Positions 14,211 to 14,606 of a stretch of 31,099 nt of DNA are shown piece after piece. Below the pieces are notes generated by a model that was not told where the DNA came from, did no database searches, and saw nothing but the letters and a program-made list of their open reading frames with translations. The stretch is from Psammoneis japonica. Lineage: Eukaryota. Within the stretch, counting starts at the first letter, position 1, and each line of letters starts with the position of its first letter. Position numbers and translations under genes: made by a program. The DNA lies in NCBI GenBank assembly GCA_008632985.1, contig QPGO01000133.1:186001-217099 (forward strand). Direction: 5' to 3'.

Positions 14211-14606
14211 GACGCGTTCCAGACACAGGTGGGAATCCGTGTGACATTGGGCCCGCAGAATTCTGCGTGCGAGCTCCGCAGTGAAATTGTGCGGCAATCA
14301 GAATGTCAATGTTCGCCAACAGAAAATGAGGCAATTTTGCGAACGCACAAACTCGCACATGATTGAAGTGCATCGATTTTTACCCAGCCAGTTACATTCT
14401 TCAGACATTGAAGAATGCAACTGGCGCATTGTTGTTTCTATAAATGCGCCATGTAAAACGTCTGGGGCTTCGCAAAACAGCAAGTCTGGACAATTTTTTT
14501 TAAATGTCACACGTAGAAATGTGCGCGCGAAACATGCGACGGATGACAAAAATTGTTTGTGTCACACGTCAGTGCTGCGAGCTCCCACCCAGGGCTGGAA
14601 CACGTC
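14211..14606 (+). mobile_element. MITE (non-autonomous TIR transposon), TpA-eroded copy
   Basis: 396 bp with ~24-bp imperfect TIRs (GACGCGTTCCAG...GGTGGGA). 4-bp TSD TGGG at 14207-14210 and 14607-14610. Colinear with 16931-17325. Confidence 0.93.

Follow-up and report, generated by a model that had tools for sequence, protein, structure and literature searches.

Copy A of an abundant MITE in the analysed window of Psammoneis japonica DNA (31,099 nucleotides; the window refers to this whole stretch) has lost most of its TA steps. Four independent lines of evidence support the direction of this change, from TA to TG or CA. The copy (14211..14606) is partly converted: 21 of 28 TA steps now read TG, CA or CG, and three CpG have become CpA. 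The changes lean towards the strand that reads TAC, a bias that is echoed weakly outside the copy. The most economical reading, offered here as a hypothesis, is that the mutator may have been a relative of the tRNA A34 deaminases with a CDA fold.

Structure and divergence of the MITE copies

All hallmarks of a MITE were found. The element is short (396 bp; copies A and B measure 395/396 bp) and non-coding, and copy B ends in perfect 12-bp terminal inverted repeats, GACGCGTTCCAG. Target duplications of 4 bp flank both copies, namely TGGG/TGGG around copy A and AAAA/AAAA around copy B. The family is very abundant, with 3082 contig pieces in the DNA run that contains the window. When conserved stretches of the element were used as queries, no further copies were retrieved from the metagenome and viral contig collections.

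Copy B (16931..17325) is unconverted, lies near the family majority and forms a TA-bearing island within TA-free DNA. Two older relatives are found elsewhere in the window: the partial copy C (9821..9953, plus strand) and the more diverged copy D (8964..9224, plus strand). Copy C shares its product with copy A at the one site that breaks the strand rule described below, and likewise at two TACG sites. In copy D, five of the seven TA sites comparable with copy A carry the identical product, the product being opposite at CCGTAGT and GTAAAA; these agreements of copies C and D with copy A may reflect shared descent rather than separate events. Both are structurally unlike copy A and are thus not simple duplicates of it.

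Conversion was read against copy B, which offers 28 clean TA steps; a further one, at column 111, falls in a stretch that is ambiguous. Of the 28 steps, 20 are converted on one strand in copy A (11 to TG, 9 to CA), one is converted on both strands and seven are unchanged. The site that appears changed on both strands reads CGTACG in copy B (17243-17248) and CGCGCG in copy A (14524-14529), as the initial annotation had described. None of the 28 steps is converted in copy B, although the surrounding DNA is fully converted. Copy B is either a very recent insertion or exempt.

Altogether, 41 columns differ between copies A and B. At 28 of them copy B has A/T and copy A has G/C (23 at TA, 5 elsewhere), against three with G/C in copy B and A/T in copy A, every one at CpG, so that the changes are almost exclusively A:T->G:C transitions. 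Sorted by the preceding base, A->G on either strand amounts to 23/58 after T, 3/77 after A, 2/51 after C and 0/45 after G. C->T in copy A occurs at CpG alone (3/50), and the loss of TA (21/28) far exceeds this loss of CpG.

The scarce A->G changes outside TA adjoin converted TAs, as if editing occasionally spilled onto a neighbouring A. Two TTA steps have become CCA (14384-14385 and 14449-14450), which reads TAA->TGG on the opposite strand, and at 14299-14301 an A->G lies two bases away from a converted TA.

Direction of change

Read backwards, the same differences would make copy A the original and copy B the target of a RIP-like process with C->T changes at CpA (CpA->TpA). We regard this as extremely improbable, even though the partial copy C shares the G/C states of copy A at four sites and the roughly 21 TA versus CA/TG differences all point one way, in the manner of a burst. 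In a contig pile-up on 14100-17400, whose listed rows (40 of 411) include none of the TACG positions, the family majority has the letter of copy B at all six listed positions that differ from copy A (14283, 14301, 14312, 14384, 14446 and 14449). At 17020 the pile-up reveals a private change of copy B, the majority there having the letter of copy A. The terminal repeats also speak against the reverse direction: TAGGTGGGA is found at both ends of copy B, whereas the two ends of copy A differ, reading CAGG and TGGG. Both copies are surrounded by almost TA-less DNA (TA o/e 0-0.05 in a 500-bp profile), with copy B as the sole TA-bearing island in 13000-21500, which is the opposite of what RIP leaves behind.

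The remaining line of evidence comes from a dead reverse-transcriptase remnant within the same window (1937..3376, minus strand), in which conserved Tyr columns have turned into Cys or His. Its ORF (1937-3031, minus strand) lies in a TA-free domain and has 323 homologues at E<=0.001, with a best E=5e-45; it was undetected in the Pfam scan. Among longer homologues one match was obtained, at 37% identity, and no close unmutated copy. At the six columns where Tyr is commonest (33-83% of 42-128 aligned homologues), the window has TGC five times and CAC once. The conserved Arg columns of the remnant read CAC, CAT or TGT, which is CpG decay.

RIP of ascomycetes converts CpA to TpA via cytosine methylation and deamination and yields TA-rich DNA. 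Like the present case, it is a hypermutation by transitions that is aimed at repeats, is specific for a dinucleotide and ruins mobile DNA. Chemistry and direction are opposite, however, since TA is erased here, and RIP was rejected as a candidate on that ground.

TA-free domains and surviving TA steps

TA-free converted domains extend over 1..3500 (also CpG-poor), 9001..11000, 13001..14210 (the flank of copy A, where CpG is kept from ~13.5 kb), 14607..16930 (linking the MITE copies) and 17326..21500. Their edges are sharp in the 500-bp profile, and the dead reverse transcriptase is contained in them. ORFs with Pfam domains sit where TA o/e is ~0.6, and a scan of 39 ORFs of the converted domains gave zero Pfam matches. 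The hypermutation is confined to foreign or repeat DNA, and neighbouring genes are spared.

Converted DNA (13,209 bp) has a TA o/e of 0.04 and an AA o/e of 1.23, compared with 0.60 and 1.13 in unconverted DNA (15,599 bp). For CpG, the respective o/e values are 0.31 and 0.95. CpG is largely lost in the TA-free stretches 1-3500, 9000-11000 and 15000-21500, while the stretch at 13.5-15 kb is TA-free and yet has a CpG o/e of ~1.

The TA steps that survive in converted DNA have distinctive flanks. TTA/TAA accounts for 33 of the 38 survivors versus 35% of the 667 unconverted TAs (p=7e-11), and YTAR for 24 of 38 versus 16% expected. Sites with a strand reading TAC are depleted among the survivors (10 of 38 versus 50% expected, p=0.005), as are those with a strand reading TAT (4 of 38 versus 49% expected, p=7e-7). 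These contexts indicate that the flanks set the rate of conversion, which rises where a pyrimidine follows the A and falls at TTA/TAA.

Two repeat structures were observed in passing. A 27-bp tandem repeat at 19797-19859 (2.3 copies, 97% matches) lies in a 288-codon open frame in TA-free DNA, where the loss of TAA and TAG leads one to expect long open frames. In unconverted DNA, a long ORF is present as an inverted duplicate at 23037-25184 (minus strand) and 25970-27748 (plus strand), encoding 715 and 592 aa, with a ricin-B lectin domain in one of the two copies and 72-83% identity between the arms.

Strand choice in copy A

The initial annotation had claimed, from a hand count of the MITE pair, that strand choice follows a TAC(G) motif. 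An exact recount returned the same figures. Only one strand reads TAC at 11 converted sites, and at 10 of these it is the TAC strand that underwent A->G (two-sided binomial p=0.012). Where one strand reads TACG, the change is on that strand at 8 of 8 sites and on the other at none (p=0.0078), a motif picked post hoc with the data already seen. The single unconverted TACG-strand site was also verified; it reads CTACG and lies at alignment column 325 (window 14514-14515).

The flanks of these sites are not independent. CTACG makes up six of the eight TACG sites, and two of these are halves of a single palindrome (CGTAGAATTCTACG). With CTACG at six of eight, C at -2 (8 versus 1) explains the MITE data equally well. 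Three further TAC-strand sites are unconverted, all of them TTAC, and the lone exception to the TAC-strand rule is a TTAC site as well. At 8 of 20 converted sites, the base at +1 is other than C.

T stands immediately 5' of the target A, as for TadA-type enzymes. ADAR prefers G as the 3' neighbour. Editing of the ADAR type was rejected, with G at +1 on the changed strand only at 0 sites and on the other strand only at 7. When copy B was folded as ssDNA, the predicted unpaired probability was 0.37 for the edited adenine versus 0.35 for its partner (Wilcoxon p=0.62), and most TACG sites fell in predicted stems. The predicted ssDNA folds thus gave no sign of a hairpin-loop, tRNA-like presentation of the edited strand.

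TAC preference outside copy A

In the dead reverse transcriptase, all four Tyr codons that read TAC on one strand only have become TGC (contexts TACT, TACT, TACC and TACA). The two Tyr codons in GTAC gave one product each way. Three adjacent tandem duplicates at 3345..4553 (plus strand) are partly converted. These ~180-bp units, 74-78% identical, lie at the edge of a converted domain and display a gradient of TA loss. A nine-unit alignment of 3165-4765 yielded no clean array, and the three adjacent duplicate pairs alone were usable. Their one-strand-TAC sites include three that agree with the rule and two that do not (3/5), and at 11 sites one copy has CA where its partner has TG, from which it follows that strand choice is not deterministic. 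A further case is pile-up row 14877, with GTACG->GTGCG. Pooled, the change is on the TAC strand at 17 of 20 one-strand sites (p=0.0026), or at 7 of 9 (p=0.18) once the discovery set is removed.

Bulk k-mer counts were used in addition, on the logic that an ancestral xTAC yields either xTGC or GTGx'. They were compared with a forward simulation that starts from the window's unconverted DNA, which is gene-rich and is taken here to represent the repeat ancestors. Converted DNA has an HTGC/GTGD ratio of 1.29 (1.10-1.52 by block bootstrap). Simulated values are 1.18 +/- 0.09 under the null, 1.28-1.35 if C and T are preferred 2-3-fold, and 1.69 +/- 0.13 if C is preferred 10-fold. TGCG/CACG, at 0.89, is close to the null (0.92) and below the 10:1 expectation (1.28), and the CpG-retaining flanks of copy A hold 9 TGCG and 14 CACG. 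Two other ratios lean as predicted, TGCA/CATG with 1.35 versus 1.03 under the null, and CTGT+TTGT over ATGG+ATGA with 1.15 versus 1.00. As the k-mer pairs lean different ways, the bulk inference is treated as low-power; at that power, the counts fit a 2-3-fold preference for C/T at +1 and give no indication of a TAC rule as strong as 10:1.

A C at +1 thus appears to be favoured rather than required. The strength of this bias lies somewhere between 2:1 and 10:1, with the evidence supporting about 3:1. Of the TAC(G) preference initially proposed, the lean towards TAC stands, being seen in the MITE (10/11), the Tyr codons (4/4) and the duplicates (3/5). The G at +2 seems dispensable: it is there at 8/8 sites in the MITE, but the Tyr codons follow the rule without it, and TGCG/CACG is null-like.

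Alternative explanations

Because the product at a site varies with the strand that carries T-A-C, the agent would seem to recognise a single strand and to modify the adenine in it. A footprint restricted to TA, slowed by one flank and leaning to the T-A-pyrimidine strand likewise points to a sequence-reading agent and not to general damage. We tentatively favour the reading in which copy A is an older MITE copy hit by TpA hypermutation through a flank-dependent, strand-reading adenine deaminase, and consider it a little short of an even chance. A rather unlikely, though serious, alternative accepts the TpA hypermutation as real but regards the TAC(G) rule as mostly a chance feature of one element, with strand choice near random genome-wide and only an overall slower conversion of TTA/TAA. 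Few sites are available, CTACG recurs among their contexts and the motif was selected post hoc; once the roughly twelve motifs implicitly compared are allowed for, p=0.008-0.012 becomes borderline. Copies A, C and D may all stem from a sub-family that had been converted before, and the absence of TACG positions from the 40 of 411 pile-up rows listed leaves room for such A-like shared descent, although the structural distinctness of copies C and D from copy A argues otherwise. An accident would also account for bulk ratios near the no-preference simulation, for the TGCG and CACG counts beside copy A, for the 11 CA/TG conflicts in the duplicates and for the weak result at independent sites (7/9, p=0.18). 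It sits less well with the four Tyr codons, all obeying the rule in an unrelated element, with the depletion of TAC- and TAT-bearing sites among the surviving TAs, and with the lean of TGCA/CATG and of CTGT+TTGT over ATGG+ATGA in the predicted direction.

The target might instead be thymine or the duplex TA step, through a modified T that mispairs with G or through a duplex-reading enzyme or repair process, which we consider improbable. A->G on one strand equals T->C on the other and the two are indistinguishable from sequence; under such chemistry, a one-strand TAC would mean a T preceded by G on the opposite strand (GTA->GCA). Resistance of TTA/TAA is a property of the base pair, visible from both strands, and the change of CGTACG on both strands would be hard to obtain by single-strand deamination and replication in one round. 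The few changes outside TA, however, can be read as additional A->G on the strand already edited (two cases of TAA->TGG), as a locally acting editor of adenine would produce. We know of no thymine-directed mutator of this kind, which counts against thymine chemistry. The only experimental report of the signature, to go by its main text, favours adenine deamination (bioRxiv 10.64898/2026.01.13.699255). A further alternative raised in the initial annotation was error-prone repair of the Pol eta type (WA->WG) beside methylated CpG, for which comparable AA->AG rates were to be the mark. With AA->AG at 3/77 versus 23/58 for TA, it fails on that mark, and we judge it very unlikely. CpG does adjoin all eight TACG sites, and its loss from the converted domains (o/e 0.31 versus 0.95) is as expected for methylated DNA; yet AA is not depleted in converted DNA (o/e 1.23 versus 1.13), the four Tyr-codon events lie away from CpG, and the 13.5-15 kb stretch is TA-free with a CpG o/e of ~1.

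Candidate adenine deaminase

Under the favoured reading, copy A would be an older insertion of the abundant MITE that was subsequently hit by TpA->TpG/CpA hypermutation, a process that has erased TA from ~13 kb of repeat DNA in the window. The simplest agent would be a polynucleotide adenine deaminase, which turns A into inosine, a base read as G on copying. As in the tRNA A34 deaminases, the pocket would require a T 5' of the adenine and prefer a C 3' of it, and the enzyme would be directed to silent repeat chromatin. In the substrates of tRNA A34 deaminases, U33-A34 is universal; TadA acts on UACG and ADAT2 on U33-A34. Adenine base editors were evolved in the laboratory from TadA, and early TadA-derived editors favour YAC. 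We know of no natural enzyme with DNA adenine deamination as its biological role. A TadA/ADAT-type deaminase, as initially suggested, is a plausible candidate for the TpA mutator, hinted at by the sequence rather than proven. The 48 ORFs scanned in the window contain no deaminase domain.

The closest parallel is found in mutation-accumulation lines of Bigelowiella natans, in which, according to the main text of a preprint, TpA-only A:T->G:C hypermutation was observed directly (bioRxiv 10.64898/2026.01.13.699255). An ADAT2-like adenine deaminase was put forward there as the candidate (Mettrop et al., bioRxiv 10.64898/2026.01.13.699255). As far as the main text of that preprint goes, both cases have in common near-exclusive A->G/T->C changes, restriction to TpA, both strands as targets, and foreign or repeat DNA as the substrate. 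They differ in that integrated viral DNA is hit in B. natans, a chlorarachniophyte of another lineage, and transposons and MITEs are hit here; moreover, new mutations were observed in B. natans, while the present case is a historical footprint. The main text of the preprint gives no +1 or +2 preference, and the words context, trinucleotide and flanking do not occur in it.

Bacterial TadA deaminates A34 of tRNA-Arg and also edits mRNA at TACG. As described in PMC12255301, it requires TACG, with the extended motif YTACGAA. It edits RNA hairpin loops, and mutation of the C at +1 abolishes editing (PMC12255301). To the extent of that description, the footprint of copy A is similar in having T before the target A and preferably C after it, and CTACG at six of eight sites fits YTACGAA. 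It is different in that DNA is the target, conversion extends to TAT and further contexts, TTAC is a weak site, a G at +2 seems unnecessary and no preference for predicted loops is seen. Wild-type E. coli TadA (EcTadA) is reported as not mutagenic on DNA (PMC10354150). Amphioxus ADAT2 (BjADAT2) is described as a natural CDA-fold tRNA deaminase that acts on both adenine and cytosine in DNA (PMC10354150), which makes the enzyme class plausible. By the same account, it is the sole natural ADAT2 shown to deaminate DNA adenine, with a preference for GAA and, for cytosine, TCG (PMC10354150); these contexts are unlike the TA found here.

Implications

TpA hypermutation has already been in print once, for B. 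natans (main text of the preprint cited above). Among the literature matches listed, none reported TpA hypermutation of transposable elements in diatoms, and those for a natural DNA adenine deaminase in genome defence were base-editor papers only. Since the main text of the B. natans preprint is silent on context, the flank and strand bias described here adds something new to a process about which little is known. Should the bias prove weak or local, the present case would be merely one more example of TpA hypermutation.

A TpA-specific footprint tied to the T-A-pyrimidine strand narrows the candidates to a strand- and sequence-reading agent, and a logo from -2 to +2 offers a concrete signature for matching the deaminases of this alga and of Bigelowiella natans. 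The fullest version of the deaminase reading, which is possible but which we consider doubtful, would be a natural, chromatin-directed DNA adenine deaminase derived from the tRNA A34 deaminases that reads U/T(-1)-A-C(+1) and serves genome defence by rewriting the TA steps of mobile DNA. If a deaminase is indeed the agent, it would be nature's equivalent of the adenine base editors made in the laboratory, and would mirror RIP and APOBEC on the side of adenine.
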